Source: Candidatus Saccharimonadales bacterium
GTDB taxonomy: Bacteria > Patescibacteriota > Saccharimonadia > Saccharimonadales > 2-12-FULL-41-12
Reading direction: 5' to 3'
DNA: 64,000 nt
Assembly: GCA_025451045.1 (NCBI GenBank)
Contig: JANWLD010000001.1
Location: 69,812-133,811 of the forward strand
Shown here: piece by piece, positions 24,246-51,773 of the stretch
Layout: each line of letters begins with the position of its first letter
Numbering within the stretch: position 1 is the stretch's first letter
Notes under the pieces: generated by a model
Databases searched by the model: none
Told to the model about the DNA's origin: nothing
Seen by the model: only the letters and a program-made list of their open reading frames with translations
Program-made: the position numbers and the translations under genes

Positions 24246-24281
24246 GTTAATTCCATTATACTTGTTATAATCTTAGCCTGA

Positions 24282-34256: not shown

Positions 34257-34284
34257 AAACTCCCCGTTTACCGGGGAGTTTTTA
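34257..34284. terminator. Bidirectional rho-independent terminator shared by hsp20 and the pilin operon
   Basis: aaactccccg-tttac-cggggagttt, a 10-bp stem flanked by A-rich and T-rich runs on both sides. It overlaps the stop codon of the last pilin gene. Confidence 0.65.
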
Positions 34285-34743
34285 AGCTAGAACCTTATTT
34301 ATTACAAATTTAACTATTATTTGAGCAAAGGCGACTATTAGAAGGCCGGCCAGTGCATAAAGTATCGCGTTTCTGCCGGTTTTGGTAGCTTCTGGATTAC
34401 CGGAAGAAGTCAAGAACTTGAAACCGCCGTAGATTATCATAAAGACAGCAGCAATCCCGGCGATTATTGAAACTACGTTTATCACATCGTTTATGAGTTT
34501 GGTTACGCGATTTTCGGCTGTTTGCGTCCCACTTTTGCCGGTATCAACGAAGTTGCCGTGCGAGTCTTTGGTTTTGCCGCAACCGGCTCCCTGTTGCTGG
34601 ATTGACAAGTTGGCTCCGGTACACAGATCATGCTCGCTATTTAAGTCTGCCGCGCGCGCAGCCGGCGATAAAAGAAAAACAGCCGCGCAGATTGCGGCTA
34701 ATAGTAGCGTGAATTTTCTTAGGGAAAGAGTCCTGCCCAACAT
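34282..34743 (-). CDS. VirB2/TrbC-like T4SS pilin paralog (array position 9, most distal)
   Basis: 153 aa. Signal peptide ending ARA, a 2-Cys variable region (CTGANLSIQQQGAGC), then a conserved two-helix hairpin VVSIIAGIAAVFMIIYGGFKFLTSSGNPEATKTGRNAILYALAGLLIVAFAQIIVKFV. Confidence 0.7.
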   Translation of the reverse strand: MLGRTLSLRKFTLLLAAICAAVFLLSPAARAADLNSEHDLCTGANLSIQQQGAGCGKTKDSHGNFVDTGKSGTQTAENRVTKLINDVINVVSIIAGIAAVFMIIYGGFKFLTSSGNPEATKTGRNAILYALAGLLIVAFAQIIVKFVINKVLA

Positions 34744-34754
34744 ATCGCTACAGC

Positions 34755-35171
34755 TTAAGTTATCTTACTCAACACAAACTTAACGATGATTTGCGCTAAC
34801 GCGACGATTACCAAACCGATAAGAGCGTAGAGGATGATATTGCGGGCCGTTTTGGTATTTTCCGGGTTGCCTGCGGAGGTGATATAGCGGAAACCGCCGT
34901 AGATTATCATGATGACCGCCAGTATACCGACTACTACAGAGATGAAGTTAACGACATCCGCTATTAATTGATCGGCTTTGCTTTCAGCGCTTTTGCCATT
35001 AACCTGGCAATCGCCGCTGCCGTTTAAGCTCAAGTCCGCGCCTTGGCATAGCTGGCTTTTTCTGACTTGGGCCGAAGCAGTTGGAACAACCGGCGCTATC
35101 AGCATTAACAGCAGGAATAAACCTGAAAACAGCCAGGCAAGTCTTTTGCTGAAAGTATATTGGGCGTACAT
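34755..35171 (-). CDS. VirB2/TrbC-like T4SS pilin paralog (position 8)
   Basis: 138 aa. Signal peptide ending ASA, the Cys pair CQGADLSLNGSGDC, and the hairpin ISVVVGILAVIMIIYGGFRYITSAGNPENTKTARNIILYALIGLVIVALAQIIVKFV. Confidence 0.7.
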   Translation of the reverse strand: MYAQYTFSKRLAWLFSGLFLLLMLIAPVVPTASAQVRKSQLCQGADLSLNGSGDCQVNGKSAESKADQLIADVVNFISVVVGILAVIMIIYGGFRYITSAGNPENTKTARNIILYALIGLVIVALAQIIVKFVLSKIT

Positions 35172-35190
35172 TTTATAAATATTTCAGTTT

Positions 35191-35622
35191 TTATGTAGTG
35201 CCAGTGGCTTTGGCAAGGACGAATTTAACGATGAATTGCGCTAACGCGACGATTACCAAACCGATGATAGCATAGAGAATGGTGTTTTTGGCAGTAGTTA
35301 TGTTGGATGATTCGCCGCCAGAGGTAATGTAGCGAAACCCGCCGTAGATTATCATGATGACTGAAACCACGCCGACTACTACTGAAAACAGGTTGATGAC
35401 TGTAGCTACCGTGTTATTGGCTTGTTCGCCTGAATTTTTAGTTACGGTGTTACAAGTTTGGGCATTAACTGGAGTGTCTAAGTCCAGGCTTGCCCCTTTA
35501 CAGGTTGCGTTTTGAATATCCGCATCCTTGTTTTGGGCCATAACAACCGCCGATGTCCCGGCAAATGTTAACAGCAAAGCTGCGCTGGTAGCGGCGATTA
35601 GTCTTTTTATTTTACCTATCAT
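35191..35622 (-). CDS. VirB2/TrbC-like T4SS pilin paralog (position 7)
   Basis: 143 aa. Signal peptide ending VMA, the Cys pair CKGASLDLDTPVNAQTC, and a conserved hairpin. Its C-terminus AQFIVKFVLAKATGTT is near-identical to the next paralog. Confidence 0.7.
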   Translation of the reverse strand: MIGKIKRLIAATSAALLLTFAGTSAVVMAQNKDADIQNATCKGASLDLDTPVNAQTCNTVTKNSGEQANNTVATVINLFSVVVGVVSVIMIIYGGFRYITSGGESSNITTAKNTILYAIIGLVIVALAQFIVKFVLAKATGTT

Positions 35623-35662
35623 TTTTATTCCTTTCGCTTGATAGCTCGTTCTCTATCCTTAT

Positions 35663-36115
35663 TTATCCTGTACCGGTGGCTTTGGCAAGGACGAATTTAA
35701 CGATGAATTGCGCTAACGCTACAATTACTAATCCTACAATAGCATATAATATGGTGTTTTTGGCAGTCGAGACGTTGCCGGAATCACCGCCGGAGGTGAT
35801 GTAGCGGAAACCGCCGACGATAATCATCAATACCGCTACTACGCCGACGATTACCGAAAACAGATTAACAACGGTTGCGACCAGCTGATTTATTTTTTCT
35901 TCCGGTTTGTTGCCGGAAAAGGCGCAGGCATCTTCATTTACCGGCCCCGGCGGGAAAGTCAATTCGGCACCCTGACAGGTCGAAGCCTGGATATTGGCAG
36001 TCTTGTCAGCTTCCGCCGAAGCCGGCCGGCCGGAAATTGCAAAGATGGCTAGTATTATAATACTAGCCATAAGCGTTACAATAACCTTCAGTTTTAGTCC
36101 TTGTGTTACTCCCAT
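35663..36115 (-). CDS. VirB2/TrbC-like T4SS pilin paralog (position 6)
   Basis: 150 aa. Signal peptide ending ASA, the Cys pair CQGAELTFPPGPVNEDAC, a conserved hairpin and the C-terminus AQFIVKFVLAKATGTG. Confidence 0.7.
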   Translation of the reverse strand: MGVTQGLKLKVIVTLMASIIILAIFAISGRPASAEADKTANIQASTCQGAELTFPPGPVNEDACAFSGNKPEEKINQLVATVVNLFSVIVGVVAVLMIIVGGFRYITSGGDSGNVSTAKNTILYAIVGLVIVALAQFIVKFVLAKATGTG

Positions 36116-36129
36116 GTAACTACCCCGTG

Positions 36130-36549
36130 TTAGCCTATCCTCTCTAGGATTAATTTTACGATAGCTTGGGCGAAACCGACTATAATCAACCCGACCAGTG
36201 CGTATATCAAAGTATTCTTGGCCGATGTTATGCTGTTGCTGTCGCCATTGGCAGTTACAAAACGAATGCCGCTGATCATCAACATAACGACGGTCAGTAT
36301 GCCGACTATCATAGTAAGTAAGTTAAGTAGGGTGGTAAGTGTTTTGGTAAGGCTATTTTCACCTTCTTTTAGCTTGCTTTGGTCACAATGTCCGCTTCCA
36401 TTATCAGCCTCCACGGCCACGCAGGCTTCTCCTTTGGCGCCGCTGAACAAACTGGCGCTGGCTGTCGCCGTAAACATCGGAACCATCAGGCCAAGTGATA
36501 TTGCCAAGGTAAGGGCGGTCTTTTTAATCCAAGAGTTGAGAGCTTGCAT
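36130..36549 (-). CDS. VirB2/TrbC-like T4SS pilin paralog (position 5)
   Basis: 139 aa. Signal peptide ending ASA, the Cys pair CVAVEADNGSGHC, and the hairpin LTMIVGILTVVMLMISGIRFVTANGDSNSITSAKNTLIYALVGLIIVGFAQAIVKLI. Confidence 0.7.
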   Translation of the reverse strand: MQALNSWIKKTALTLAISLGLMVPMFTATASASLFSGAKGEACVAVEADNGSGHCDQSKLKEGENSLTKTLTTLLNLLTMIVGILTVVMLMISGIRFVTANGDSNSITSAKNTLIYALVGLIIVGFAQAIVKLILERIG

Positions 36550-36576
36550 GATGATTATCCTTGGTTCATATTATCA

Positions 36577-36972
36577 CTAATTTACCGTGATTCTCGATAA
36601 TATCAGCCTTACCATTGCCTGCGTCAGTGCCGCTACGACTAAGGCAATGAGGGCATATTGGATATATTCGCGGGCTTTGGTAACTTCTTCCGGGTTATTC
36701 CCCGAGCTGACAAACTTCGCCCCGGCCAAAATGATACTGATTACCGCCGCGATGCCGACCATGATACTGATTATATTGACTATCTTGGTAATAAACCCGT
36801 CCGGCCCGTAAATCGGGTTTTGGCCGCCCAGGTTTTTATCCTCGCAGGCGGAAGACTGCTGGTTGTTCCTTTGGCATATATCGCCGAAAACGTCGACATC
36901 AGCGGCAATAGCTGAAGCCGGCAAAGATATAATGCCGAGGCAAAACAGGCTTACTAATATTTTTCTTATCAT
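36577..36972 (-). CDS. VirB2/TrbC-like T4SS pilin paralog (position 4)
   Basis: 131 aa. Signal peptide ending AIA, the Cys pair CQRNNQQSSAC, and the hairpin ISIMVGIAAVISIILAGAKFVSSGNNPEEVTKAREYIQYALIALVVAALTQAMVRLI. Overlaps the upstream gene by 4 nt. Confidence 0.65.
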   Translation of the reverse strand: MIRKILVSLFCLGIISLPASAIAADVDVFGDICQRNNQQSSACEDKNLGGQNPIYGPDGFITKIVNIISIMVGIAAVISIILAGAKFVSSGNNPEEVTKAREYIQYALIALVVAALTQAMVRLILSRITVN

Positions 36973-37478
36973 AATTTTCCTATTACTGTAGTTACGATTG
37001 CTTCGGCCAACAGTGCAATGGCCAGTCCGAGAAGGGCAAAAACAATGGCTTTTTTGGAACGGGATATTTTTTCGGCGTCGGTAGCGGCTGTCGCGAAATT
37101 AAAAGCCGCGATGCCCAGAGAAATCATCGCCACGCCAGCGGCGACTCCGAAAACAATTTGCAAGCCTTTTTTGACAGTACTGGTGTCCGCGACAACTTTG
37201 GGCAGGGTAGTAAGACATTGTTTATCCGGGTTAAATACTTTGCCGCTGCCGCAATTACCGCTTTCGGTAACCTTGGTACAAGTTAGGGTATCATGGCCGC
37301 TTTTCAACAAGGCGGCCGAACAGTCGTCAAAAGCGGCGGCTCCAGCCCCGGAGTGCTGTGGGGTTTTCTGCTTGTTATTCGCGGCTGATACATGCGCCGG
37401 CTGGGCTAAGCTTAAGATTGTCATGGCCGGCAAGAGCAGCAGAATAATTTTTGTTATAGGTATAGTTTTAAAAATCAT
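36969..37478 (-). CDS. Divergent VirB2/TrbC-like pilin paralog (position 3)
   Basis: 169 aa. Signal peptide ending VSA, a larger Cys-containing region with 4 Cys, and a C-terminal two-helix hairpin FGVAAGVAMISLGIAAFNFATAATDAEKISRSKKAIVFALLGLAIALLAEAIV. It has 4-nt overlaps with both neighbouring genes. Confidence 0.6.
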   Translation of the reverse strand: MIFKTIPITKIILLLLPAMTILSLAQPAHVSAANNKQKTPQHSGAGAAAFDDCSAALLKSGHDTLTCTKVTESGNCGSGKVFNPDKQCLTTLPKVVADTSTVKKGLQIVFGVAAGVAMISLGIAAFNFATAATDAEKISRSKKAIVFALLGLAIALLAEAIVTTVIGKL

Positions 37479-37834
37479 TGCAGGCTCTTTCCTACGAAAC
37501 TTACGGCCGCCGTTGCCACAATAGCTATTATCAAACCGGTCAGTGCATCTATCAAGGTACTTTTGGCATTATTAACCTTATCAGCATTACCACGCGAGGC
37601 GCTATATTTGATACCGGCGTAAACTACGAAACCAATGGCCGCGTAGACGGCCACGCGAGTCAGTATTTCTATCAATGCCAACCCGATAAGCCATATATCG
37701 CTGATGCTATGTAGCTGCGGGGCGCACTGGTTGGCTACCTGTACATCCAAGTATTCATACCATGGGGGCATACCCAAAAAACCTTTAAGACATGGATTTA
37801 CTGCCGCAAAAAGATCTAAAAAGACTAATACCAT
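37475..37834 (-). CDS. Divergent pilin-like membrane protein without a classical signal peptide (position 2)
   Basis: 119 aa with three hydrophobic segments. The C-terminal part (AAIGFVVYAGIKYSASRGNADKVNNAKSTLIDALTGLIIAIVATAAV) keeps the pilin hairpin pattern. Confidence 0.55.
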   Translation of the reverse strand: MVLVFLDLFAAVNPCLKGFLGMPPWYEYLDVQVANQCAPQLHSISDIWLIGLALIEILTRVAVYAAIGFVVYAGIKYSASRGNADKVNNAKSTLIDALTGLIIAIVATAAVSFVGKSLQ

Positions 37835-37847
37835 AATTTATATCCGC

Positions 37848-38495
37848 TCATGTGTTAAACAACCCTCCCGGGATTAAGAATTGGAGCAATGACCAGGAAA
37901 AGATATAAATAGCCAAGCCGATAAGCGCTTGCTGGGCGCGCAGTTTTGCTTTTTGCGACGATTCCGGGTTGCCTTCGGCCGTAGTGTATTGGATACCGGC
38001 AATAATTAATGAAAGGGTAACAGCGATACCAACCCCGACTGAAAAGAATCTGATTAACGCGAATACTAAGTCCTGTATCGGGCCCATCCCGGCAGGTGCT
38101 TTGGAACCTAAACAGCCGAAGTTTATCTTGGTCCTGACGTTATCATTGTCATCAGGCAAGTTTCCGCATTGGTAGCCATCTTTTGTTTTCGCCGCGGATT
38201 TTTTCTTGCCGCTAATCTGTTTAGCACTCCCTATTTGTGGCAATGACTGAGCCAAGGCATTGCCTATAGCATTCGCGCGGCATCTTTTAATTTTGTCGCT
38301 GGAGCCGTTCCCGCAATTGTCATAGTCTTTTTTACAAGCGGCGGGGTTTTTCGCATTATTACACTGGTCCCTGGATGGGCTTAGAAGACCGGGAGAAATA
38401 GGAAAAGTTTCAGCCTTAACAGTTTGCGGAACAACTAAAAAAACAAATAATAGCAAGGGGGTAGCTAAGAATATTTTTGCTTTTAAAGTTAACAT
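37848..38495 (-). CDS. Enlarged Cys-rich pilin-like protein (position 1, promoter-proximal)
   Basis: 215 aa. Signal peptide ending VKA, a ~110-aa Cys/Lys-rich domain with 7 Cys, then the hairpin FSVGVGIAVTLSLIIAGIQYTTAEGNPESSQKAKLRAQQALIGLAIYIFSWSLLQFL. Confidence 0.6.
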   Translation of the reverse strand: MLTLKAKIFLATPLLLFVFLVVPQTVKAETFPISPGLLSPSRDQCNNAKNPAACKKDYDNCGNGSSDKIKRCRANAIGNALAQSLPQIGSAKQISGKKKSAAKTKDGYQCGNLPDDNDNVRTKINFGCLGSKAPAGMGPIQDLVFALIRFFSVGVGIAVTLSLIIAGIQYTTAEGNPESSQKAKLRAQQALIGLAIYIFSWSLLQFLIPGGLFNT

Positions 38496-38665
38496 AGGCT
38501 ATTTGTTTTATGCTTAACAAGTTTAAGTATGCCCTTATTTAAGACGTTTAGCAAGTAACCGTTAGCCTCCATGCTTTAAGGGTTGTCGACTTTTATACAT
38601 AAGTGTTTTATTATTAATTAAAGAAGAGTAATGCTCTTTCGAGTTTTTATATCCAAACAAAAGAA

Positions 38666-39586
38666 ATGCTCAAAAAAATAACAAAAAAACCGTTCTTGTT
38701 TCTTTCAATACTGGTAATCTTTGCCTCATTTATATTGGCTGCCTTTCCACAGCAGAAGATCCAGGCCGCAACAACTAACAATATTTTAAAGCAGGTCGGG
38801 CTTTATTGTCATGACCTAGAAGATACTGTTGATGTAGTCGGTCCCAAAAATGCTGAGATAACTTGTTCTTCTGCAGAAAATGACCTACAAGGTGCTCTTG
38901 ACTGTCCCGACTTGTTTTATACCCATGCGTTCCCGGATGACCCCCATGACAGTAGCATAACTAAGACTCTGTGGTTCACTAAGGAAGGCGCGTATAAAAC
39001 TTGCTACAACAATGCCTTGGCCCAATACAATGCCTTGGCCGGAACAAAATGTAAACAGATGAGACGCGATCGGGACAACTGGAATGAGTGTGAAGACATT
39101 CAGAGCAACCTGTACTTTTCCCTGGGCTGTAACGATCATATGTTCAAAGACTTGAACAATGGCTATTGGGGATACGACGATACGAAACTCAATGACTGTA
39201 AAAGAAGACTTGACGACGTCGGCAATATCCACATTATGATAATTGTTAACAACCAAGTTGTTAAAAGCCCTAACGCCATCAAAAATGGTGCCGTTCAGTC
39301 CGAAGAAGATGCCAATGCTGCTGGTGACAGTGAAGGGACAAGCAGCTGTGGTGGCGGAATTAATCTGGGGTGGATTATCTGTGGTATAACTGAAGTGGTT
39401 CAGAACTTCGGCGAATGGGTTTTTCAAGATTATATACAGCCGATGATGGAAAATAATCCGGTCAGCGCAAAACCCGGCGATCCTTTCTATCAAGCTTGGC
39501 AGGGCTTTAGATTTTTGGCTAATATTCTGCTTATCGGTTCACTATTGGCTATTGTTTACTCTCAGACCAGGGGAGGGGGCAGTTAG
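38666..39586 (+). CDS. Cys-rich exported protein with N-terminal signal/anchor and C-terminal TM (T4SS-locus component, function unknown)
   Basis: 306 aa, first gene of the plus-strand operon. N-terminal hydrophobic segment with AAFPQQKIQA|A, 10 Cys in the central domain, and a C-terminal helix FRFLANILLIGSLLAIVY. Its stop is directly adjacent to the next ATG. Confidence 0.6.
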   Translation: MLKKITKKPFLFLSILVIFASFILAAFPQQKIQAATTNNILKQVGLYCHDLEDTVDVVGPKNAEITCSSAENDLQGALDCPDLFYTHAFPDDPHDSSITKTLWFTKEGAYKTCYNNALAQYNALAGTKCKQMRRDRDNWNECEDIQSNLYFSLGCNDHMFKDLNNGYWGYDDTKLNDCKRRLDDVGNIHIMIIVNNQVVKSPNAIKNGAVQSEEDANAAGDSEGTSSCGGGINLGWIICGITEVVQNFGEWVFQDYIQPMMENNPVSAKPGDPFYQAWQGFRFLANILLIGSLLAIVYSQTRGGGS

Positions 39587-41614
39587 ATGAACCTTGATGC
39601 CTATATGATTCGCAAAATCGCCCCGCGGCTGTTTTTTGCCGTAATCGGCATTAATCTGTCGATTTATCTTTGCGTCGGAGCCATAGACATAACTACAGTG
39701 GCTGGACACGGTATTGGACAACTTATCCGCGGGCCGTTTGATGCCGCTGGCGTGTTGAACGCTCAACCTGATGCCGGCGGTAGTAATATCGGCGGAGGGG
39801 CTTTGTTAGTCTTGGGTGCATTGTTCGGGGTACCGGCATTCGCTGGAGGCCAAGCTTTGTCAACTATGTTCTTCCTGCTTTTGCCAGTCTTTGTATTGAT
39901 TCTAACTACTTTACTTACCGTTGCTCTTAGGCAAGCTTTGTTAGTTCTTTTGACCATGGTAGCGCCGGCTGCCATTGTGCTATCCGTTCTGCCGGGAACT
40001 GAGAAATATTTCAAACAGTGGTGGGACTTGTTCCTAAAAACGCTGATGGTCTACCCGATGATTGCCGCAATTTTTGCTGTGTCAGATGTCCTGACAGCAA
40101 TTAATTATAACAACTCGCATGCTGGTAATGACCCGAATGCTGCAGTGCAAGTTATAAACGGGTTGATATTTGCTTTTTTGCCCTTAGCTCTTATTCCGTT
40201 CGTTTTCCGGTTCGCCGGCGGGGCACTGGGCGCATTTTCCAATGCATCACGCCAAGCTCAAAGTATGGCTAACCGCCTGAGCGGACAACGCTTGCAAGGT
40301 AATTACAGTCAGGGGCTTGAGCATGTAAGAGCTAGTGGGCTTATTGGGAATTACGACAGAGATCCGGAAACCGGGGCTGGAAGGGGTTTGCGACACCGTA
40401 TAAACCGGGGTGCCGCTAAGATAGCCAACTTAAACCAAATGAGGCTTACCCGCCCAAGACAAAGCCTAAACGATGCCGTGGACAGGGCTACCGCCCAAGC
40501 CGCTACTGAGCAAGTGGGCAAAAGCCCTGAAGCGATGGCGTTGGACGGTTTTGACGATGAACACAAGGCTAATGCGCTTTCTAATGGTACGGCAGCTGAT
40601 ATTGACCGTAAGCTCATTCAAGTAGCAGGTCAGCGATTTAATGACCAGGCGCCGGATTTGAGTAGCGCGGAAAGAGCGGAGCGGCGTAAGAACCGGATTG
40701 GAGCCCGCAACCGAATAATGGACCTGAACAAAGTCCGCGGGGCTGACGCCGGACGAGCATTCTCGGCAATGACCTTGCCAAGTATATCCACTGCTTTTGA
40801 TGAACAGGTTTACAAATATAAGACCAATAGTTCAGGCGGGTTAATACCCGATGGAAGGGGTGGTTATGCCCTTTCCGATGAAATCTGGCAAGACGGGGAT
40901 GGAGACCATCTTAAAAGCGATACCGTGGCTAAATCATCTCATGATCAGATGCAAGAAATGATCCACAAGGTCTCCGGCGGCAGGAGGGGACTTGGCAACG
41001 CTATACTTGTCAAAGGCATACAAGGGGCCAAGCAAGCCGGGCGTTTTGATTTGGCCGCCAGTGCTTCGGCCAACTTGCTGTACCAGGAAGCATTGCGCAG
41101 TGGCGATAAAAATGCTATCGAAGACTCTAAGAAGCGTTACGAAGAAATGATACGAGAGCGTATCACACCGGGCCAAGCCGCACAGGGACACCCCCGAGCC
41201 GCCAGAGAAGTTGCCAGAGCCTGGAAAAACGAAATCAACGCGCTTATGGGAGCCGGAGCTACGGCAGATAAATCGCAATGGGACCCGAAGAAGGATAGTG
41301 TTCAGCAAATGGAAAACAATAAGAAACTTATCAGGCTTCTGGCTGACACTGCCGGATTTCAGGAAGTATTGGGCAGTGCCGGATCAGAGGCTGTAGATGC
41401 ATTCCAGGATAATATGCTCGGCTATAAACCTGAGGGAGCTAATGTGACTATCGGGCAAATGATGGAACATGCCCGTAAGACCGCCGATTTCGCCGAACGG
41501 CGGCGCGAATGGGGCACTGAAGCCGAAGGACACGAGGCTTCGGAACGAGCCGCACAGATCGCAAAGATGCAAGAAGAAGCTCAAAAAGCTCAACAATCAG
41601 GACAAGGTCAATAA
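39587..41614 (+). CDS. VirB6/TrbL-like polytopic T4SS membrane protein with long hydrophilic C-terminal domain
   Basis: 675 aa. The N-terminal ~230 aa hold 5-6 TM helices (for example MFFLLLPVFVLILTTLLTVALRQALLVLLTMVAPAAIVLSVLPG), an arrangement typical of VirB6/TrbL/PrgH-class proteins. The remaining ~440 aa are hydrophilic and charged. Assignment rests on topology and context. Confidence 0.6.
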   Translation: MNLDAYMIRKIAPRLFFAVIGINLSIYLCVGAIDITTVAGHGIGQLIRGPFDAAGVLNAQPDAGGSNIGGGALLVLGALFGVPAFAGGQALSTMFFLLLPVFVLILTTLLTVALRQALLVLLTMVAPAAIVLSVLPGTEKYFKQWWDLFLKTLMVYPMIAAIFAVSDVLTAINYNNSHAGNDPNAAVQVINGLIFAFLPLALIPFVFRFAGGALGAFSNASRQAQSMANRLSGQRLQGNYSQGLEHVRASGLIGNYDRDPETGAGRGLRHRINRGAAKIANLNQMRLTRPRQSLNDAVDRATAQAATEQVGKSPEAMALDGFDDEHKANALSNGTAADIDRKLIQVAGQRFNDQAPDLSSAERAERRKNRIGARNRIMDLNKVRGADAGRAFSAMTLPSISTAFDEQVYKYKTNSSGGLIPDGRGGYALSDEIWQDGDGDHLKSDTVAKSSHDQMQEMIHKVSGGRRGLGNAILVKGIQGAKQAGRFDLAASASANLLYQEALRSGDKNAIEDSKKRYEEMIRERITPGQAAQGHPRAAREVARAWKNEINALMGAGATADKSQWDPKKDSVQQMENNKKLIRLLADTAGFQEVLGSAGSEAVDAFQDNMLGYKPEGANVTIGQMMEHARKTADFAERRREWGTEAEGHEASERAAQIAKMQEEAQKAQQSGQGQ

Positions 41615-41628
41615 ATTAAAGTAATGAT

Positions 41629-42624
41629 ATGGCAAGTTATAAAGTAATCCAAGACATTGAAGCGGAAGACAAATTTGTCGGGCCGCTGTCACTAAAACAG
41701 TTTGTTTTTGCGATGGTCGGCGCGCTTTTTGCTTATTTGTCATTTTTTGTCATCACTAAAGGGTTAATGTTGGGACTGGCAGTGACTTTACCCCCGATGT
41801 TTTTCGGCTTTTTTATGGCATTCCCTTGGAGCAGTGAACAGCCAACCGATATCTGGGTACTGGCCAAGATAAGATTTCGGATAAAGCCAAAGAGGCGCAT
41901 CTGGGACCAAGCCGGACGGCAGGAACTGGTAACTATAACTGCGCCAAAAAAAGAAGAAAAGCCTCGTGGTAACGGATTATCTGGCACGGAGGTAAAAAGC
42001 CGGCTCAAGGCTTTAGCTGAAACACTTGATAGCCGTGGGTGGGTTATTAAAAACGCCACTTTGCCCAACTACAACAGCAAGCCGGCTGACAGCAGTCGTT
42101 TGGTTGAGTTATCCCAATCAATTTCGGACTCCGCTAGTTTTACGGCCGCCATCCCAGATATGATGGAAGAAGGCCGCAACCTGGACGAAATGATCCAAAA
42201 AAGTGATGATGCCCGTACATTTGAAATCATTGATAAAATGGACAGGGCAAGAGCCGGCGAGCCGCTGGAATCTATTAGCCAACCTGAGCCGGTTGTAGCC
42301 CCTCCTGTTGAAAACATTACGAGCGAGAACACGCTTAGCGAAATGTTGCGAAATCAAAAGCGTGCTGGAGATATAGGCCGAAGCAACCTGCGCACTATTC
42401 CTGCCGCTCCATCCCCCGCTGTTCCGACTGATACCAGTCTTGATGATAGACAAAACGAACCAACAACAGAGGTAAAAAAAGCACAAGCGTCTGTGACAGA
42501 ACAGACTAGCCCTGATATACTTGAACTAGCCCATAATAATGCTTTGAAAGTGGCTACCATTGCGAGGCGAGCGAACAGCGACACCGATGATGAAAGCAAA
42601 GAAGTCGTAATTTCGCTTCATTAA
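41629..42624 (+). CDS. PrgI/VirB3-like small-TM T4SS protein with extended C-terminal region
   Basis: 331 aa. The N-terminus YKVIQDIEAEDKFVGPLSLKQFVFAMVGALFAYLSFFV plus a second TM helix matches the PrgI/TcpE (VirB3 analogue) pattern that precedes VirB4 in Gram-positive systems. The C-terminal ~200 aa look disordered. Confidence 0.6.
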   Translation: MASYKVIQDIEAEDKFVGPLSLKQFVFAMVGALFAYLSFFVITKGLMLGLAVTLPPMFFGFFMAFPWSSEQPTDIWVLAKIRFRIKPKRRIWDQAGRQELVTITAPKKEEKPRGNGLSGTEVKSRLKALAETLDSRGWVIKNATLPNYNSKPADSSRLVELSQSISDSASFTAAIPDMMEEGRNLDEMIQKSDDARTFEIIDKMDRARAGEPLESISQPEPVVAPPVENITSENTLSEMLRNQKRAGDIGRSNLRTIPAAPSPAVPTDTSLDDRQNEPTTEVKKAQASVTEQTSPDILELAHNNALKVATIARRANSDTDDESKEVVISLH

Positions 42625-42662
42625 AGCCCATCAAACATCAAAAGAAAAAGGGTGGCAAAGAC

Positions 42663-45442: not shown

Positions 45443-45485
45443 ACAGCGCGAAATAAGCTAAAGCTGGATAAAGATAAAAACTACC

Positions 45486-48419
45486 ATGAATGAAACCGAG
45501 CAAAGAGATAATACCCACGGCGAAGCGGAAAAAAAGGCGCGTTTTGGTCCGAGCAGTCCGGACTTTACTCCGTCAGGCGATTCTTCCGACCCGCGCGGCC
45601 CCGACAACATAGCCGCCGGAAAATCATCCGATCCGAGGGGCGAAGATTCTTTGCAGTCGCGGGAAGCAGCGGGAGGCGTGGGTTCAAGAGGAGCAGTTGG
45701 CGGTGCAGAGTCAGGTCTGGCCAATCAACTTGGTAAAGGCTTCACCGGTGTCGCCGGTGCAGCGGCTGGCGGGGGAGCTTTAGGATCGCTTCGCCCTTTT
45801 TTGAAATTTTTAACCAGAAATAAAAGAAAAACTGCCGCCGGAGGTTTTATTGGTGCTGTCGTTGGTATTATGATTTTCCTTGCCGGCATTGCTTCGGGCC
45901 CTTTTGAATTTGTACATTTTGCTCAATTACTACAACAGTTTCACCTGCGAAGCAATGAAGATTTCGGCAATGAGCGCGGCGCCAGAACCTTGCTTTATGC
46001 ACTGACCGGACAAGCCCAAAAATCCCGTCTTGGTTTTGTCGGCAATTATGCAGCTGACAAGTGGGAAGCCAAGCTTCTGAAAGAAACAGGCTTACGACCG
46101 GTTTATTCAGCCAAAACCAGGATAGTTGTGGGGTTTGAAATAGTAAATGACAAATATATAAACGGGCTATTAGATGCCGACGAAAAAACGTCGGCAAGAT
46201 TAGAGAGCGCCATGGGAAAAGGCGCAAAGGTAACTACGGCCGGCTCGGTTAAAGGCCAGGATGTTGTACGCGGGAACGGTGAAGTACTGCCCGGTAATAC
46301 GCACATTATGAGCGTGAAAGACATGGGCTGGAAGGAGCGCAGTAAATTTATAAGGACGATCGGCAAGCTTACTGGCACCAATAACATTACCAGCACCTTG
46401 GCCTCGCGTCTTTTAAAGAAAAGAGGCGGGGTTATTTTCCATCCATTTAGATATCTTACCCATAAAGCAGTAGATAAATTGGTAGATTGGCGTTATGAAC
46501 GCAGAAAAGAAGCTGCCAGACAAGATAAAGAAGGTACAAAAAACGGCGGGGTGAAACCTAAAGACACCAAGGATACAAATGACGATAAAAAGCCCGATGC
46601 TCCAGATGAAGCCGACAAGGTGGCGGCAGAGGGAGCAGAGGAGACCATAGATGAAGCCGCCAAAGAGCTTGCAAAGAATAATATCAAAATACTTGCTAAA
46701 AGAATTGGAACCGGCTCTATAGCCGTAGGTATTTTATGCGCCGCTAAGGGCTTTGGCGATGCGGTGCCGGACTATAAGTATACAAATAATGTCCTGCCGA
46801 TGATGCGAATGGGTTTTAGGGTGGTAAGCATGGGCAATGAGGTAATGAGCGGGCAAGGCCTAACCCTCGATGAAGTGGGAGCATTTAAAGATGCCCTCTA
46901 TGATAATCAAACCGGAACAAATTGGACAGAAGCCGGGACAATTCAGGGCGAACTCGGCCACAAACAAACGGGCTACAAAATGCCCCCAGAGGCTAGTTTG
47001 CAAAACGTTAATGACAAGCCATTATTTTTCGATATCTTAGACCAAGTACCTTTCCTTGACACTGCCTGCGACATATCGGGGATTGCTGGTTCTATCCCAA
47101 TCGTAAAAGACGTGTTGAATGTCGGTTCAGATGCCGTGTTGGCCGGACTTAATGTCGCAGCTGGAGCCGCCGGTACAAGCGTAGACGCAATAATGGAAGG
47201 CGCTTTGGCTTTAGTTTCCGGCAATTCGGTAGACACGCTGGCGTCAGGGGCTGATTATGGCAATCTGGCAAACACCGGGGCGTTTTTAGCTGCTAATGAT
47301 AATGCCGTATCCATGGGCGGCAGTCCTTTGAGCAACCAGCAAAGAGCGGAGCTTAGGCTTTATGAACAAAATAATCTTAGGAACGAAAACCAAACCAAAT
47401 CATTCGCGGAGCGCTATCTTGACCCCTATAGTTCTAACAGTTTAAGCGGCCAGCTTATAGACAATGCCCCCCATTCACTAAGCAGTTTCGCGGATATTTT
47501 TAATTCCTCATTAGGATTGCTTACCGGCAGGTTCGCAAGTATTCTGCCTCTTGGAAACAATTCTTTGGTCAGTGCGGCCGGAAATGTTGATTATGGAGTG
47601 CCCAAGTTCGGCTTCTCTTTAGCAGACCAAGAAAATCCTAAATTTGAAAATCCTTATAATAATGCTGAGAAGGTCGAGCCCCGTCTTAATGAATTGAATG
47701 ATGAATACGGCAAGCCGTGTTTCGGCATGAGCGTCCATACCGCTTCCGATGGCATATCCATAGAAACCGAGGCGATGGGCAGTGATGATTTAAACGTATT
47801 TAACGTCCTCGACAACGAAAAATGCGACCCGCAAAAAAATCATGATCCTTGGTTTAAGCGGTATCGTTTTTACCTAGCGGATGCGGTTTCTACAGTTAGC
47901 AACGCCTGCTTTCAGGCCGACGGCGACCCCAAAGGCGAGAAGTACTGCGAGATGCTCGGCTTTGATACAGAGGCCGCTCTATCTAGTAGTAGTTCGACAG
48001 GAAGCGTCATAAATGGTGATGCACAGCAATTAGCACAGCAACTTCTTGATAACCCAAATGTTACCTATCCATATGCCGACGAGGTTGACGGTACGACTGT
48101 TGAAGATGTGCTGAAAAGCGTTGTGCGAACGGGCGAAGGGATTGTTAATTCGCCTGATGTTAGCTTTAAAAGCGTCCCAGTAAGTACTGATTTGCTCCAA
48201 GCACTGGTTGAATATGCAGAAAATTACCCCATTGGCTTAAATGCGCTTACCAACGCCGATCATTCAAGTACCTCGAACCATTATAAGGGAATTGCTATAG
48301 ACATAGCCTGCTCTCCTGCTCTTAATGTGGCTGCTTTTAACAAAATTGCAACTAAGTATGGCGGGCACAACAATGGAGAGGTCTGTCCAGGGAACAAACA
48401 TTATCATTATGATTTCTAA
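45486..48419 (+). CDS. Giant single-pass membrane protein with C-terminal peptidase M15 (zinc D-Ala-D-Ala carboxypeptidase/VanY-like) domain
   Basis: 977 aa. Disordered Gly/Ser/Asp N-terminus, one TM helix (FIGAVVGIMIFLAGIASG), and ~750 aa of unassigned sequence. The C-terminus DHSSTSNHYKGIAIDIAC...GNKHYHYDF fits the M15 SxHxxGxAxD...H zinc motif. Confidence 0.65.
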   Translation: MNETEQRDNTHGEAEKKARFGPSSPDFTPSGDSSDPRGPDNIAAGKSSDPRGEDSLQSREAAGGVGSRGAVGGAESGLANQLGKGFTGVAGAAAGGGALGSLRPFLKFLTRNKRKTAAGGFIGAVVGIMIFLAGIASGPFEFVHFAQLLQQFHLRSNEDFGNERGARTLLYALTGQAQKSRLGFVGNYAADKWEAKLLKETGLRPVYSAKTRIVVGFEIVNDKYINGLLDADEKTSARLESAMGKGAKVTTAGSVKGQDVVRGNGEVLPGNTHIMSVKDMGWKERSKFIRTIGKLTGTNNITSTLASRLLKKRGGVIFHPFRYLTHKAVDKLVDWRYERRKEAARQDKEGTKNGGVKPKDTKDTNDDKKPDAPDEADKVAAEGAEETIDEAAKELAKNNIKILAKRIGTGSIAVGILCAAKGFGDAVPDYKYTNNVLPMMRMGFRVVSMGNEVMSGQGLTLDEVGAFKDALYDNQTGTNWTEAGTIQGELGHKQTGYKMPPEASLQNVNDKPLFFDILDQVPFLDTACDISGIAGSIPIVKDVLNVGSDAVLAGLNVAAGAAGTSVDAIMEGALALVSGNSVDTLASGADYGNLANTGAFLAANDNAVSMGGSPLSNQQRAELRLYEQNNLRNENQTKSFAERYLDPYSSNSLSGQLIDNAPHSLSSFADIFNSSLGLLTGRFASILPLGNNSLVSAAGNVDYGVPKFGFSLADQENPKFENPYNNAEKVEPRLNELNDEYGKPCFGMSVHTASDGISIETEAMGSDDLNVFNVLDNEKCDPQKNHDPWFKRYRFYLADAVSTVSNACFQADGDPKGEKYCEMLGFDTEAALSSSSSTGSVINGDAQQLAQQLLDNPNVTYPYADEVDGTTVEDVLKSVVRTGEGIVNSPDVSFKSVPVSTDLLQALVEYAENYPIGLNALTNADHSSTSNHYKGIAIDIACSPALNVAAFNKIATKYGGHNNGEVCPGNKHYHYDF

Positions 48420-50316
48420 AAAAATGTTGGTCGGTAAGCTGATTTCAAGGCCTGTTGAGCTTATATGCATAGGTGCTCTTTTGCTGATTACGGCCGTGCC
48501 TGCCAAGGTGCAAGGTTTATCGAGCGAACAGAAAGGATACTTCGCTAAAAGTATTAAGTATTTTGATGAGGGTCGTTGTTCTTCTTCGTCAGAAGTAACC
48601 AGTGGTTCCGGGGAGCCAGACGGTAGTGTTTTTCCAGATTTAGACCCAGAAGTTATGGCCGGAACCATAGATAAGTTCATCAAAAAAGAAAATCCGAACA
48701 GCAAACTAAATGGATTGGGCGAAACCATAGTAGCAGGAGCGAAAAACTCCAATATCAACCCGTTTTTGATAGTAGCCCAAGCTTATATGGAATCTGGCTT
48801 AGCAGATCCTGGGATAAGCGATATTTTCGATAGGGGCAACAATGCATTTGGGCGGTCGGCCTTGATCAGCCAGCCTCATATTGTTAGCCAAGGTGCTCCC
48901 GGTGCTCCCGGCATATGGTATAAGTGGTCGTCGGTCAAAGCTAGCGTAGACTACACCGCACATGAAAACAAAAATGCTGCAGGAGGCGGTGATATAGCGT
49001 CCTACTTGCGGGAGCAATACGGAAACATCTTGGATAAGGGAGATCTTGACGCATACATTGCAGAATACGCGCCAGACGGAAATGAAGATACTTATGTCAA
49101 GAACATAAGCGGCTGGGTCAAAGAGATGGCCAGGCTCGCAAGCGGCAGGGCTGCGCCAATCGGGGCTGAGCCAGAGGCCTCTGGCTCAGGGGGGTGTTGC
49201 TCAACCAGCGGAAGTGGAACCGGCGGGGATGAAAGCCTGGTGGGAGGCACTAATGGCGAAAAGGCCTTTCTCTATTTTGTCGGAAAAGGCCTGTCCGCTG
49301 AGGCCGCCGCAGGAATTATAGGGAATTTTATGGTTGAATCCGGCGGTTTAACTGAAAATCTGGATACACGCGCCAGCAATGGCACACATACAGGTATAGC
49401 CCAGTGGGATAATGGCGGACGCTGGGCTTCGCTAGTAGATTTTGCAAAAGGGAAGAGCCTTGACCCTTACAGCCTTTTTGCACAGCTAGAGTGGACCTGG
49501 CAAGAGTTAAGCGGAAGTTATAGCGGTACACTAAATAGCCTGAAGAAAGCCTCTTCGCCCGAGGATGCTGCTACCGAATTCGAAGCAACTTTTGAAATTT
49601 CAGGCGGATCCGCACTGGCGGATAGAGAAGCATCCGCCCGAAAAATATTCAATCAATATGGCGGGGGCGTAAGTGGTAGCGTAGCGTCGTCCGGTGAATG
49701 TTCTGGCACGCCTGCAGGTGACGCTAATCTGCAAAAAACTATTACGGTGAGCACAAAAGGTAAGTTTATTACCCTGCCAAGCAAATACTCTTGCCCCGGG
49801 CATACCACTAGAATAGATTCTAGGGTAGCGGCTGATCTGGCCTATCTGATCACCACATATAATATGTGCGCGGAAGACGGTCTGGCTAGCGGCCATAACA
49901 GCCACGGCGCAGGGATATCCGTAGACCTTATACCAAAAAGCGGAAACTCAAAAAATGATTGGGAAAATTCCACCGAAGCCGCGGCGCGCGCTATCGGATG
50001 GTTCGGCGATGGAGCAAATGATCCCATAGGCTCCAAGAAAGGTTGTGCCTTTTATAACGGCGATTACGGTCAGTGTATGCATATAGTCTATCCTGACAAA
50101 TTTCCAAAGTGGATGCGCTGGATAGGATATAACGGAGATTATTGCCATGGTGATCCCTGGCACTACCAGAATGCCTGTGAGGCCCACTTGCACATCAGCT
50201 GGGATTCCCCGAACGGCAATGACGCGACTTCTCCTACCGAGATTGCCGAGCCGATACCTGAAGTATATGTTTTCCCGACATCCATACCTAGTGATTTAGA
50301 AGGGCTGATAAATTAA
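48409..50316 (+). CDS. Secreted three-module peptidoglycan hydrolase (glucosaminidase-like + phage-tail-lysozyme-like + M15 peptidase-like)
   Basis: I prefer the ATG at 48409 (or 48424), giving MISKKMLVGKLISRPVELICIGALLLITAVPAKVQG as a signal sequence. Module 1: NINPFLIVAQAYMESGLADP...NNAFG. A GSGGCCSTSGSGTGG linker follows. Module 2: LSAEAAAGIIGNFMVESGG...HTGIAQW. Module 3: SGHNSHGAGISVDL...CEAHLHISW, which fits HxxGxSxD...H. Confidence 0.7.
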   Translation: MISKKMLVGKLISRPVELICIGALLLITAVPAKVQGLSSEQKGYFAKSIKYFDEGRCSSSSEVTSGSGEPDGSVFPDLDPEVMAGTIDKFIKKENPNSKLNGLGETIVAGAKNSNINPFLIVAQAYMESGLADPGISDIFDRGNNAFGRSALISQPHIVSQGAPGAPGIWYKWSSVKASVDYTAHENKNAAGGGDIASYLREQYGNILDKGDLDAYIAEYAPDGNEDTYVKNISGWVKEMARLASGRAAPIGAEPEASGSGGCCSTSGSGTGGDESLVGGTNGEKAFLYFVGKGLSAEAAAGIIGNFMVESGGLTENLDTRASNGTHTGIAQWDNGGRWASLVDFAKGKSLDPYSLFAQLEWTWQELSGSYSGTLNSLKKASSPEDAATEFEATFEISGGSALADREASARKIFNQYGGGVSGSVASSGECSGTPAGDANLQKTITVSTKGKFITLPSKYSCPGHTTRIDSRVAADLAYLITTYNMCAEDGLASGHNSHGAGISVDLIPKSGNSKNDWENSTEAAARAIGWFGDGANDPIGSKKGCAFYNGDYGQCMHIVYPDKFPKWMRWIGYNGDYCHGDPWHYQNACEAHLHISWDSPNGNDATSPTEIAEPIPEVYVFPTSIPSDLEGLIN

Positions 50317-50339
50317 CGTAATATTAGATAGGGCTGCTT

Positions 50340-51773
50340 ATGATAACCGAAGCGATTTTAAAATATAAAAAGCAACTGGTTTTGTTCGGGTTTTGCGTGC
50401 TTGTTATTGTGCTTGGGGGTTCTTTATGGAATTACCTTCGTTTCGGCTCGATATCGGTAGTTACAGATAACGGAAATACTATTACTATCAGCGAGCTGCC
50501 TGGTGGTAGCAAGAATGGCCAAAAATTATTTTCAAAAACAGCTAAAGAAAGATTGTCGGTGCGCGTGTCGCCCGGGAAATACATAGTCAGCGTAAGCAAC
50601 AAAGCCTCTTATATAAACAAAGCAGTTACCGTTAGGGCTGGCGAGGATAACGAGTATAATCTCAACCCCTCGAAGGAAACCGGCTTAGAACCGGTTATCG
50701 GGATGCTTGCAAATAGTATGTATCCCAGCAATCAGGGGTTGAGCTTTATTGAATCTGGCTCAGGAATTCTCTTCCGGATAACCGATGCAAATCGGCTGAT
50801 TCAAGTATCTAATATTGCTGGGTTCCAGCGGGCAGAATGGTCCGACTATGGAATAGGAGCTGCTGAGGACAGCAAGGGCAACATCTATAGGCTGGTAGGC
50901 GACGATGTTCGTAAGATTAGTTTGCCCGGTCCATTCACTGTTAATAAAACCTTCTGTGTATCTCCGGATGGGACAATATATATTATAAAAAAAGACGGTA
51001 TTTATGCGGCTGGGGCATCAGAGAAGCCGAGATATGTAGGAGGGTGGGAAGACTCCGCGTTACCTTTTATTGCAGCCTCGAACAAGCGTTTGGCAATCAT
51101 AGTGCCGCCGCCGAACGATTCTTCTGCCGACAAGCAGATGGAAGAACCTTTTGTAGAAATCATAGATAAAAGCGGCAACCTAAAAGCCAAGAAAAACCTC
51201 TCTGCTTTAGCCGGTTCTTGGTCCCCGGACGGTACTAAGCTTATCCTTACAGACTTTTATGGAAATACTGGTATATATAATGAGAGGCTGGAGCTCTTAA
51301 AGACGCTGCCTAACATACAGGTTCTTAAAGCTGCCTGGGCTAATAATGAAAAGGTTGTTTATACTACCGATAATAGGGTCTGGCTGTATAGCATTAAAGA
51401 TGGTCTGTCACGAGCTTTTTCCAGCCTACCGCTGGGACTCTCTGTCGTTTCAATCTCTATAAACAAAGGCAGCGGACAGGTTTATTTGTCTGGAGGGGGT
51501 GAAGAAAAAAGCGGCATTTACAGGTTTAGTCTGAGCGGCGAAGAAGATTCCGGTCTGGACAGTATAAAAAAGCTTGCTGTCTTCCTTCCTGTCGCCTTGG
51601 ATTCTTGTCGTATAAGCTATATAAACTTTTCTGAGAAACCATCGATCATTCTTCAGACTACCCCTAAAAACAAGTCTGTTTGCATATCCCAAACAGATAT
51701 AGAGCTAACTCAAGATGGCCTTAACAGGAAGGACTTCGATTTCCAGTTTGATTTGGCTTCTGACAATCTTTAG
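50340..51773 (+). CDS. N-terminally anchored protein with PD40/beta-propeller-like repeats (last gene of the T4SS-like operon)
   Basis: 477 aa. TM helix LVLFGFCVLVIVLGGSLW, with repeats such as VSPDGTIYIIKKDG and SWSPDGTKLILTDFYG that resemble TolB/PD40 blades. The stop overlaps the recF stop region by 4 nt (convergent). Confidence 0.5.
   Translation: MITEAILKYKKQLVLFGFCVLVIVLGGSLWNYLRFGSISVVTDNGNTITISELPGGSKNGQKLFSKTAKERLSVRVSPGKYIVSVSNKASYINKAVTVRAGEDNEYNLNPSKETGLEPVIGMLANSMYPSNQGLSFIESGSGILFRITDANRLIQVSNIAGFQRAEWSDYGIGAAEDSKGNIYRLVGDDVRKISLPGPFTVNKTFCVSPDGTIYIIKKDGIYAAGASEKPRYVGGWEDSALPFIAASNKRLAIIVPPPNDSSADKQMEEPFVEIIDKSGNLKAKKNLSALAGSWSPDGTKLILTDFYGNTGIYNERLELLKTLPNIQVLKAAWANNEKVVYTTDNRVWLYSIKDGLSRAFSSLPLGLSVVSISINKGSGQVYLSGGGEEKSGIYRFSLSGEEDSGLDSIKKLAVFLPVALDSCRISYINFSEKPSIILQTTPKNKSVCISQTDIELTQDGLNRKDFDFQFDLASDNL

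Follow-up and report, generated by a model that had tools for sequence, protein, structure and literature searches.

We analysed a locus resembling a type IV secretion system (T4SS) at positions 34282-51773 of a 64-kb stretch of DNA, hereafter called the window, from a Candidatus Saccharimonadales bacterium (contig JANWLD010000001.1). According to the map of open reading frames (ORFs) of the entire window, the locus consists of 17 intact ORFs, named g1 to g17 here, which form two divergent operons: nine consecutive genes lie on the minus strand (34282-38495) and eight on the plus strand (38666-51773). A first-pass annotation, made by a model from the sequence alone, had described these gene sets around an AT-rich control region of 170 bp, and its coordinates were confirmed (Table 1). 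The spacer has a G+C content of 30.6%, whereas the locus has 47.2% and the window 46.3%. The tight gene coupling described in that annotation was present as well. In the plus-strand operon the TAG of g10 is directly followed by the ATG of g11 (39584-39589, stop and start adjoining at 39586/39587) and g13 and g14 meet in a TGATG (43533-43537), and in the pilin operon two ATGA overlaps occur (36969-36972, between g6 and g7, and 37475-37478). Moreover, the locus is origin-proximal and similar to its neighbours in G+C, as had been stated, with recF, dnaN and dnaA adjacent in the Pfam scan of the downstream flank. A cluster of DnaA-box-like sites lies next to dnaA, and beyond it rnpA, yidC and jag are found; oriC was placed from dnaA and this cluster only.

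For comparison with relatives one genome per GTDB species was scanned, which returned 80 loci whose ORFs were called and compared with the window genes. Of 42 related loci, 39 have a short, AT-rich spacer (44-199 bp, G+C 21-47%) equivalent to the one between our two operons, and in the other three it measures 546-590 bp. We presume that the spacer is a bidirectional promoter region. One sigma-70-like match was found within the spacer (38586-38614), a type of match that was not enriched over shuffles. The promoter and terminator scan as a whole yielded 36 matches against a shuffled background of 27 +/- 5, which is not clearly above, and no promoter is claimed.

Table 1. Features of the T4SS-like locus and its flanks, with positions in the window. 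Percentages are protein identities.
Feature	Coordinates	Strand	Assignment	Evidence or remark
Upstream flank			hsp20, ComF-like phosphoribosyltransferase, tRNA-Ser	
g1	34282-34743	-	predicted VirB2-like pilin paralogue, promoter-distal	PF18895 7.2e-13; TrbC 3.6e-5; 46% to g2
g2	34755-35171	-	predicted VirB2-like pilin paralogue, distal type	PF18895 2.1e-15; 46-51% to g1, g3, g4
g3	35191-35622	-	predicted VirB2-like pilin paralogue, distal type	PF18895 2.3e-13; 57% to g4
g4	35663-36115	-	predicted VirB2-like pilin paralogue, distal type	PF18895 5e-16; TrbC 2.5e-7 (above cutoff)
g5	36130-36549	-	predicted VirB2-like pilin	PF18895 3.4e-12; TrbC 4.5e-7
g6	36577-36972	-	predicted VirB2-like pilin; commonest type at position 4 of related arrays	PF18895 4.5e-9
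g7	36969-37478	-	divergent pilin-like protein, 4 Cys	PF18895 1.4e-4, 22.3 bits (cutoff 26.6)
g8	37475-37834	-	divergent pilin-like protein	PF18895 9.4e-6, 26.1 bits (cutoff 26.6)
g9	37848-38495	-	long pilin-like protein, 215 aa, 6 Cys, adjoins promoter region	PF18895 4.5e-6, 27.1 bits, above cutoff
Intergenic region	38496-38665	.	presumed bidirectional promoter region, AT-rich, divergent	170 bp, G+C 30.6%
g10	38666-39586	+	exported Cys-rich ectodomain with C-terminal transmembrane segment	10 Cys; hydrophobic segments 9-27, 280-298
g11	39587-41614	+	polytopic VirB6/TrbL-like membrane protein	5 hydrophobic segments; ~465-aa hydrophilic C-terminal domain
g12	41629-42624	+	PrgI/VirB3-like protein, long low-complexity C-terminal tail	Pfam PrgI 1.3e-11, residues 5-91
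g13	42663-43535	+	TrsD-like, putative detached N-terminal piece of CD1110-type VirB4	NCBIfam TrsD 3.9e-9
g14	43535-45442	+	VirB4 ATPase, short form	NCBIfam conju_CD1110 5.2e-109
g15	45486-48419	+	giant membrane-anchored protein, C-terminal M15/VanY-like module	SNHYKGIAID motif; orthologue profile
g16	48424-50316	+	exported multi-domain peptidoglycan hydrolase (predicted)	Phage_lysozyme2 1.7e-28; glucosaminidase 1.4e-4
g17	50340-51773	+	membrane-anchored beta-sandwich and beta-propeller protein	AlphaFold2 model: predicted local distance difference test score (pLDDT) 73.6, predicted template modelling score (pTM) 0.62
recF, dnaN, dnaA	51770-55607	-	downstream flank	Pfam scan
DnaA-box cluster	55631-55755		oriC region	four DnaA-box-like sites

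Predicted components of the machine

The first-pass annotation had read the minus strand as nine VirB2/TrbC-like pilins and the plus strand as a Cys-rich exported protein (g10), a VirB6/TrbL-like protein (g11), a PrgI/VirB3-like protein (g12), a VirB4-N-domain-like protein (g13), a VirB4 ATPase (g14), two huge wall hydrolases (g15, g16) and a PD40-like anchored protein (g17). Our searches bore these assignments out, for g11 and g17 in part. The ATPase g14 exceeded the cutoff of the NCBIfam CD1110 equivalog NF045971 (365.6 bits against 325), matched the Pfam TraG P-loop (5.7e-28) and the VirB4 C-terminal domain of PDB entry 4AG5 (3.6e-52), and carries both the Walker motifs GSGKS and LIIDEAW that had been reported. 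Residues 54-170 of g13 align to positions 2-119 of the 752-position CD1110 VirB4 model, of which g14 covers positions 174-734. Since both proteins align to separate stretches of one NCBIfam model, g13 and g14 together can be regarded as a split VirB4 which follows the TrsD/TrsE pattern of the pGO1 subclass. No relationship between the orthologues of g13 and those of g14 was detected by hhalign, which is consistent with g13 being a piece absent from g14 and not its duplicate. The g13 profile retrieved nothing useful among the PDB sequences; the protein occurs in 78 loci at 58-77% identity and possesses many invariant residues. The PrgI/VirB3-like g12 was found in 75 of the 80 related loci.

In the case of g11 the topology, with five hydrophobic segments, and the position agree with a VirB6/TrbL-like protein, whereas the profile matches are weak and below cutoff (Pfam TrbL, E 0.007, residues 9-197; NCBIfam CD3337/EF1877 mobilome membrane protein, E 5e-4). 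TrbL was matched by 3 of 19 g11 orthologues, and their profile found no match among the PDB sequences. The preceding g10 has an N-terminal signal, ten cysteines and a C-terminal transmembrane (TM) segment. It matched nothing in Pfam, NCBIfam or PHROG, and its AlphaFold2 (AF2) model was unusable (pLDDT 55). A single TAG separates g10 from g11, which continues in the same frame, and in six related loci (L021, L010, L008, L057, L066, L011) the equivalents of both form one ORF of ~820-1040 aa. L006 and L014 encode g10 in a short ORF of its own (282-320 aa), which ends at the same junction, before the LDAYT-RK-PR motif, and in L002, L007 and L018 the g11 equivalent starts at this conserved junction, with no g10-like ORF aligned upstream. 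Because g10 and g11 occur either fused or split, in frame, we consider g10 an N-terminal ectodomain that can be detached from an extended VirB6-like protein, so that both would form one functional unit. Besides, in related Saccharimonadales the C-terminus of some VirB6-like orthologues is formed by a Peptidase_S74 domain (L050:3806-7081, E 5.7e-8; L044:3155-6862, E 5e-4), which is known as an intramolecular chaperone of endosialidases and phage tail fibres. This hints at an extracellular, fibre-like nature of the large C-terminal domain in these two orthologues.

All nine minus-strand products matched the Pfam family PF18895 (T4SS_pilin) with E-values from 5e-16 to 1.4e-4, and seven passed the gathering cutoff, with g7 and g8 just below it. 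Matches to TrbC/VirB2 were obtained at E <= 0.021 for six of the nine (g1-g5 and g7) and at E 0.047 for g8, and none for g6 and g9. The proteins share a plan of an N-terminal hydrophobic signal, a variable Cys-containing segment and two hydrophobic helices with a conserved loop, G-G-F-R/K-Y-x-T-S-x-G, between them; the divergent g7 has the same topology. In the alignment the membrane helices are conserved and the ectodomain region is variable. Pairwise identity within the array is 29% on average and reaches a maximum of 57% (g3 vs g4). Moreover, the window pilins match NF045849, an NCBIfam family of pilin-like proteins from the integrative and conjugative element (ICE) of Mycoplasma, and g4 matches the NCBIfam pilin-like family Mbov_0395 (1.2e-8) and, by tblastn, a pilin-like gene of Pontibacillus.

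The number of pilins per array was counted in 34 related arrays that were bounded on both sides. Six pilins were present in 25 arrays and seven in six, and arrays of five, eight and nine were found once each. The first position, adjacent to the promoter region, is of g9 type in 32 of the 34 arrays and the second of g8 type in all 34, so that the two promoter-proximal positions are nearly always g9-like and g8-like; the distal positions are of g3/g4 type. In the window g1-g4 are mutually 33-57% identical, and g2-g4 constitute the DNA repeat family D1. Judging from these alignments, the nine pilins of the window appear to result from tandem expansion of the promoter-distal g3/g4 paralogue type.

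The giant protein g15 is composed of a disordered N-terminus, one TM segment (residues 117-135), a conserved core (~140-830) with five invariant cysteines and a C-terminal M15/VanY-like peptidase module. g15 alone had no direct match in Pfam or PDB. Its SNHYKGIAID sequence is a perfect SxHxxGxAxD M15 motif, followed by HYH, and a profile of its orthologues matched LdcB/VanY structures (1.2e-7 to 9e-5, positions 807-976). Among 29 g15 orthologues the C-terminal module was VanY in eight, Amidase_2 in six, CHAP, M23 and GDSL in two each and beta-lactamase-like in one. A GDSL lipase/acylhydrolase domain, of the type that ends two g15 orthologues, also occurs in a 970-aa protein just past oriC (57945-60857, minus strand). 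In other species the C-terminal modules of g15 and g16 are found in either protein; the giant hydrolases thus seem to be modular, with catalytic domains that were swapped and shuffled between species.

In g16 the Phage_lysozyme2 domain spans residues 310-445 of the long ORF, and the glucosaminidase match is weak. The mechanical start of this ORF is 48325; we consider 48424 most likely the true start because the N-terminus of the orthologues supports it. PHROG tail and endolysin families match g16, although the PHROG search of the locus proteins gave generic matches only. The conserved C-terminal domain is rich in His and Asp (invariant HxSHGAGxxxD...HGDPxH...HxH) and may be a metallopeptidase of the LAS type; neither g16 nor the profile of this domain had a useful match among the PDB sequences. 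The operon hence encodes predicted peptidoglycan-cleaving domains in g15 and g16, which corresponds to a VirB1-like function. These domains differ from those of the PrgK/TraG hydrolases, which are lytic-transglycosylase or CHAP domains. For the last gene, g17, the proposed membrane anchor was recovered, together with a propeller, in the AF2 model, which consists of a TM helix (10-34), a beta-sandwich (36-107) and an all-beta region (117-397) and retrieved WD40-type propellers and Ycf48 from PDB with Foldseek at ~1e-8; the Pfam PD40 family itself reached only E 0.087. Homologues of g17 are rare, with only 3 among 5.8 billion proteins and BLAST presence in 8 of 80 loci, and the gene appears to be a lineage-variable accessory.

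Conservation and relationship to known systems

A comparison of synteny across related genomes had been proposed in the first-pass annotation, and the gene order indeed recurs next to recF-dnaN-dnaA, as comF-hsp20-(5-9 pilins)-(g10)g11-g12-g13-g14-(g15,g16,g17)-recF-dnaN-dnaA. The ATPase g14 is 79-89% identical across the 80 Saccharimonadales species loci; an NCBI protein on a 538-kb contig is 100% identical to it, the next closest homologues share 82-93% identity, and among thousands of close relatives those that carry a name all belong to Saccharimonadales/Saccharibacteria, which places the organism in Saccharimonadales. Identity across the related loci is 58-77% for g13 and in the median ~34-43% for the pilins, and g15, g16 and g17 are much more variable. 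In Pfam scans of the window ORFs no type IV coupling protein (T4CP) or other coupling ATPase was found (no T4SS-DNA_transf, TraG-D_C or FtsK-like match), nor any relaxase, integrase, recombinase or transposase, in line with what had been reported for the 64 kb. The other ORFs scanned encode housekeeping or unknown proteins only, and no Walker A motif was present in the unannotated ones. Att-like direct repeats flanking the locus were not detected in the window, where pilin paralogues and short chance matches account for all direct repeats. Furthermore, the 17 genes had no Pfam or NCBIfam match to VirB7, VirB9, VirB10, VirB11 or VirB5. Because of the fixed position, the native composition and the strong purifying selection on the ATPase, the locus is best regarded as a vertically inherited core machine and not as an integrated element. 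An ICE was considered and rejected, as att-like repeats, integrase, relaxase and T4CP are missing from the window and the synteny is fixed. The fixed synteny in 80 species also supports the earlier suggestion of a domesticated, non-conjugative apparatus that probably serves host interaction in an epibiotic bacterium from the candidate phyla radiation (CPR).

The locus is very probably the Saccharimonadales orthologue of the chromosomal T4SS of the Patescibacteria clade. This kind of locus is already published and every element of the earlier interpretation is in print. The statement that function and architecture of such systems are uncharacterised has been overtaken by Wang et al. 2023 (PMC10633639) and Quinonero-Coronel et al. 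2025 (PMC12102498), who cover the locus. Wang et al. first described an "apparent T4SS (SEML1_0006-0019)" in Southlakia epibionticum ML1, which is closest to Gram-positive conjugative systems, comprises a series of essential pilin genes and has no recognisable coupling or relaxase proteins; all but one of its genes were essential by transposon sequencing (PMC10633639). According to Tables S1 and S2 of that study the order is dnaA, dnaN, recF, two exported proteins, a protein with glucosaminidase and phage-tail-lysozyme domains, a giant protein whose C-terminus has a Hedgehog/DD-peptidase fold, VirB4, a hypothetical gene of 882 bp, PrgI, VirB6-like proteins, six PF18895 pilins, Hsp20, ComF and tRNA-Ser. 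Compared with these tables, the window follows the Southlakia order gene for gene. In both species the pilin array is divergent from the VirB6-like, PrgI, ~290-aa, VirB4 and hydrolase genes, the flanks are the same, and coupling protein and relaxase are missing from the cluster. The proteins at the position of g11 were called TrbL/VirB6-like by structure (PMC10633639 Table S2). The architecture of g16 equals that of SEML1_0006, and SEML1_0007 possesses a Hedgehog/DD-peptidase C-terminus; both genes are essential (PMC10633639).

Nevertheless, both loci differ in several respects. The window carries nine pilins and Southlakia six. The single VirB6-like unit of the window is split into g10 and g11, whereas Southlakia has two large proteins (0011, 0013) and an NTF2-like 0012. 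The C-terminus of g16 is His/Asp-rich, and SEML1_0006 has a cysteine-proteinase fold instead. At the position of the terminal g17, with its TM helix and beta-propeller, exported PEGA and prealbumin-like proteins are encoded in Southlakia (PMC10633639). As to orientation, the 13-kb plus-strand T4SS operon of the window (38666-51773) faces oriC (about 55.6-56.0 kb) and is thus head-on to replication, and the pilin operon is co-directional with it. The same orientation can be seen in the Southlakia table, where dnaA is on one strand and genes 0004-0013 are on the other. GC skew in the window (1-64000) tracks the coding strand and not the direction of replication; the cumulative skew is maximal near dnaA, with no minimum there, and therefore cannot be used as an origin marker in the window.

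Similar arrangements were described by Quinonero-Coronel et al., who surveyed 2,474 virB4 genes of Patescibacteria and found a distinct clade related to MPF-FATA (PMC12102498). In that survey TrsD, PrgI/VirB3 and VirB6 adjoin virB4 and relaxases are generally absent; VirB2 arrays comprise 2-11 genes with a mean identity of 25% and a maximum of 54%; and the T4SS lies close to dnaA and dnaN, for which a gene-dosage role was suggested (PMC12102498). The window shows no essential difference from these loci, its array being toward the upper end in size. What our comparison adds is the positional conservation of the g9 and g8 types, the fusion or split of g10/g11 and the swapping of hydrolase domains. 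A FEMS review of 2025 calls the system a newcomer to the T4SS superfamily and discusses a possible pilus conduit (PMC12857230).

Gene content further suggests that the locus is a derivative of monoderm MPF-FATA conjugation machinery of the TrsD/TrsE or CD1110 type. As in pGO1 (TrsD/TrsE), the conjugative transposon (CTn) of C. difficile (CD1110) and pCF10 (PrgF/PrgH/PrgI/PrgJ/PrgK), a CD1110-type VirB4 with a TrsD-like protein upstream is accompanied by PrgI/VirB3, a polytopic VirB6-like protein, a wall hydrolase that is large and has several domains, and small membrane proteins resembling VirB2. Unlike in these systems, no T4CP, relaxase, oriT, surface adhesin or VirB8-like protein was recognised in the window locus, which is chromosomal, vertically inherited and, in the related Southlakia, essential. 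Its pilin gene has multiplied to nine divergent copies, which lie on the opposite strand.

The first-pass annotation had seen a mixture of a Gram-positive core with Gram-negative pilins which monoderm systems were thought to lack. This view is outdated, given the Pontibacillus pilins, the NF045849 family and the PrgF_B2 pili. A preprint of December 2025 reported that VirB2-like PrgF_B2 pili are functional in pCF10 and most Gram-positive conjugative plasmids (10.64898/2025.12.18.695078). Moreover, tblastn with a window pilin revealed homologues on Bacillota megaplasmids. The megaplasmid NZ_CP062975.1 of Pontibacillus sp. ALD_SL1 (351.8-361.4 kb, our locus L081) contains the complete module, and the gene order is that of the window. 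It begins with two PF18895 pilins, which are followed by a TrbL/VirB6-like protein that bears an N-terminal ectodomain, then by a PrgI/TraL-like protein, a homologue of g13 (hmm E 3e-40) and a short VirB4 (38% identity, E 1e-146), and it ends with a 1050-aa hydrolase with NlpC/P60 and M23 domains. Positional counterparts in this locus were not detected with the g15, g11 and g17 profiles, the VirB6-like protein and hydrolase being too diverged. It differs from the window in having all genes on one strand and only two pilins, and in residing on a megaplasmid of a free-living member of Bacillota. The annotation shows neither T4CP nor relaxase within 12 kb, and the plasmid has been typed as non-mobilizable. 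The locus may be a second T4SS of this type that lacks a relaxase and lies outside the CPR. The presence of the entire module, pilins included, on a Bacillota megaplasmid argues against a chimeric origin of the pilins, which most simply would be part of the monoderm module and no graft from diderm systems.

Possible function of the system

In T4SSs VirB3 anchors VirB4, VirB4 extracts VirB2 onto a VirB6 platform, and VirB1-like hydrolases open the wall. From this established biology we infer the following mechanism. The split VirB4 (g13 and g14) would be docked to the membrane by the PrgI/VirB3 protein g12 and would power an inner-membrane platform made of the VirB6-like g11 and the Cys-rich ectodomain g10. 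The VirB2-like pilins (g1-g9), exported by Sec, would be extracted from this platform and polymerise to give a short pilus or conduit. In it g9 and g8, which are encoded in the conserved promoter-proximal positions, would act as specialised subunits, the g1-g4 type would be the expandable subunit with a variable surface, and the variable N-terminal pilin segment would be exposed. g15 and g16 would cut peptidoglycan so that the structure crosses the wall of the epibiont and probably breaches that of the host. The machine would act at the contact site of epibiont and host and move macromolecules other than conjugative DNA. A host-directed conduit for the acquisition of nutrients or macromolecules is slightly favoured over effector export, because a preprint of 2026 reported tubular structures, possibly T4SS pili, at the Patescibacteria-host interface together with the acquisition of host RNA (10.64898/2026.06.21.733656).

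Several points weigh against this interpretation of the locus. The sequence reveals neither the substrate nor the direction of transport, and the pilus is predicted from genes. The VirB6 assignment of g11 is weakly supported by sequence, as weak E-values are combined with position and topology, and a VirB8-like (NTF2-fold) protein was not recognised in the locus. In addition, the hydrolases could serve the epibiont's own wall only, like an ordinary VirB1. Our view is limited to 64 kb, so that a distant T4CP or relaxase may exist. Many Patescibacteria genomes encode VirD4 homologues elsewhere, far from virB4 (PMC12102498).

An extension of the conduit hypothesis concerns the host range. It is conceivable, if rather improbable, that host range is determined by the two giant hydrolases together with the expandable pilins of distal type, and that these are not housekeeping assembly factors. 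The conserved, anchored g15 scaffold carries a catalytic domain whose type varies from species to species. Likewise, the distal pilin type, which was duplicated from the modal six to nine genes, may present its Cys-bracketed variable segment, predicted to face outward. If this were true, the T4SS would be adapted to each host's surface and wall chemistry.

Regarding the substrate, a nucleic-acid uptake machine resembling ComB or Ced, with host nucleic acids as the nucleotide source, is a sub-hypothesis compatible with the proposed conduit, to which we give about one chance in four. Helicobacter pylori ComB and the archaeal Ced system are T4SS-derived importers that have neither relaxase nor T4CP, which makes them possible functional analogues. 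The lineage generally cannot synthesise nucleotides, and the T4SS was proposed as a route for their uptake with ComB as precedent (PMC11665869); the link of possible T4SS pili to host-RNA acquisition mentioned above points the same way. g14 also matches the DNA-import ATPases CedB (1.9e-13) and CedD (9e-7), but these matches are far under the cutoffs and reflect shared P-loop domains. ComB is a diderm system of VirB2-4/6-10. comF is a conserved neighbour of the locus; however, it is part of a separate pathway, ComEC competence, that Southlakia can dispense with (PMC10633639). Besides, Pfam and NCBIfam recognised no nuclease or nucleic-acid-binding component in the 17 genes, and we found no evidence of DNA handling in the window locus.

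An organelle for adhesion only, in which VirB4 assembles VirB2-like filaments for host attachment and no substrate is translocated, would account for the nine pilin genes, which make up a quarter of the locus, for the variable ectodomain of the pilins next to conserved membrane helices, and for the missing T4CP, the usual substrate receptor, in the window. We consider it distinctly unlikely. Saccharibacteria already attach and move by type IV pili (PMC10633639, PMC11623550), the Ptl and Brucella VirB systems secrete proteins in spite of lacking a T4CP (PMC12102498), and such an elaborate set of hydrolases points to penetration and not to simple adhesion. Finally, a functional conjugative element or ICE remnant whose coupling protein and relaxase are encoded elsewhere in the genome is highly improbable: the closest VirB4 relatives outside Patescibacteria do include an Embleya plasmid locus with T4CP and replication-relaxation protein directly after virB4, where the window has g15, and distant VirD4 homologues exist as stated, but the mobility genes and flanking repeats searched for in the window are missing, the composition matches the surroundings, the same dnaA-adjacent site in 80 species and the identity of VirB4 imply vertical inheritance, and in Southlakia a distant t4cp homologue is non-essential whereas the T4SS genes are essential (PMC12102498, citing PMC10633639).

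Apart from the secretion locus, the window contains a gene for a tryptophan synthase beta-like PALP enzyme with an N-terminal Trp_repressor domain (7819-9309, minus strand; E 4.5e-7), which is an unusual fusion and adjoins trpA (6925-7650). ArgG, HPPK, DHPS and DHQ synthase are encoded as well, which indicates a genome less reduced than those of oral Saccharimonadales. A highly acidic, low-complexity protein of 753 aa (13799-16060, minus strand) had no match in Pfam or PHROG and contains no Walker A motif. Two divergent tRNA-Ser genes with CGA and TGA anticodons are arranged back to back, 36 bp apart (24156-24371), and a third (GCT, 32316-32408) lies beside comF, a neighbourhood that is conserved and also found in Southlakia.

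Taken together, the window holds another species' copy of a published locus and does not add a system of a new kind. Among CPR bacteria few machines are known that are essential to epibiotic life, and the saccharibacterial T4SS is one of them. The comparative details obtained here, namely the conserved versus the expandable pilins, the g10 ectodomain, the split VirB4 and the swapped hydrolase modules, may guide experiments on this machine.

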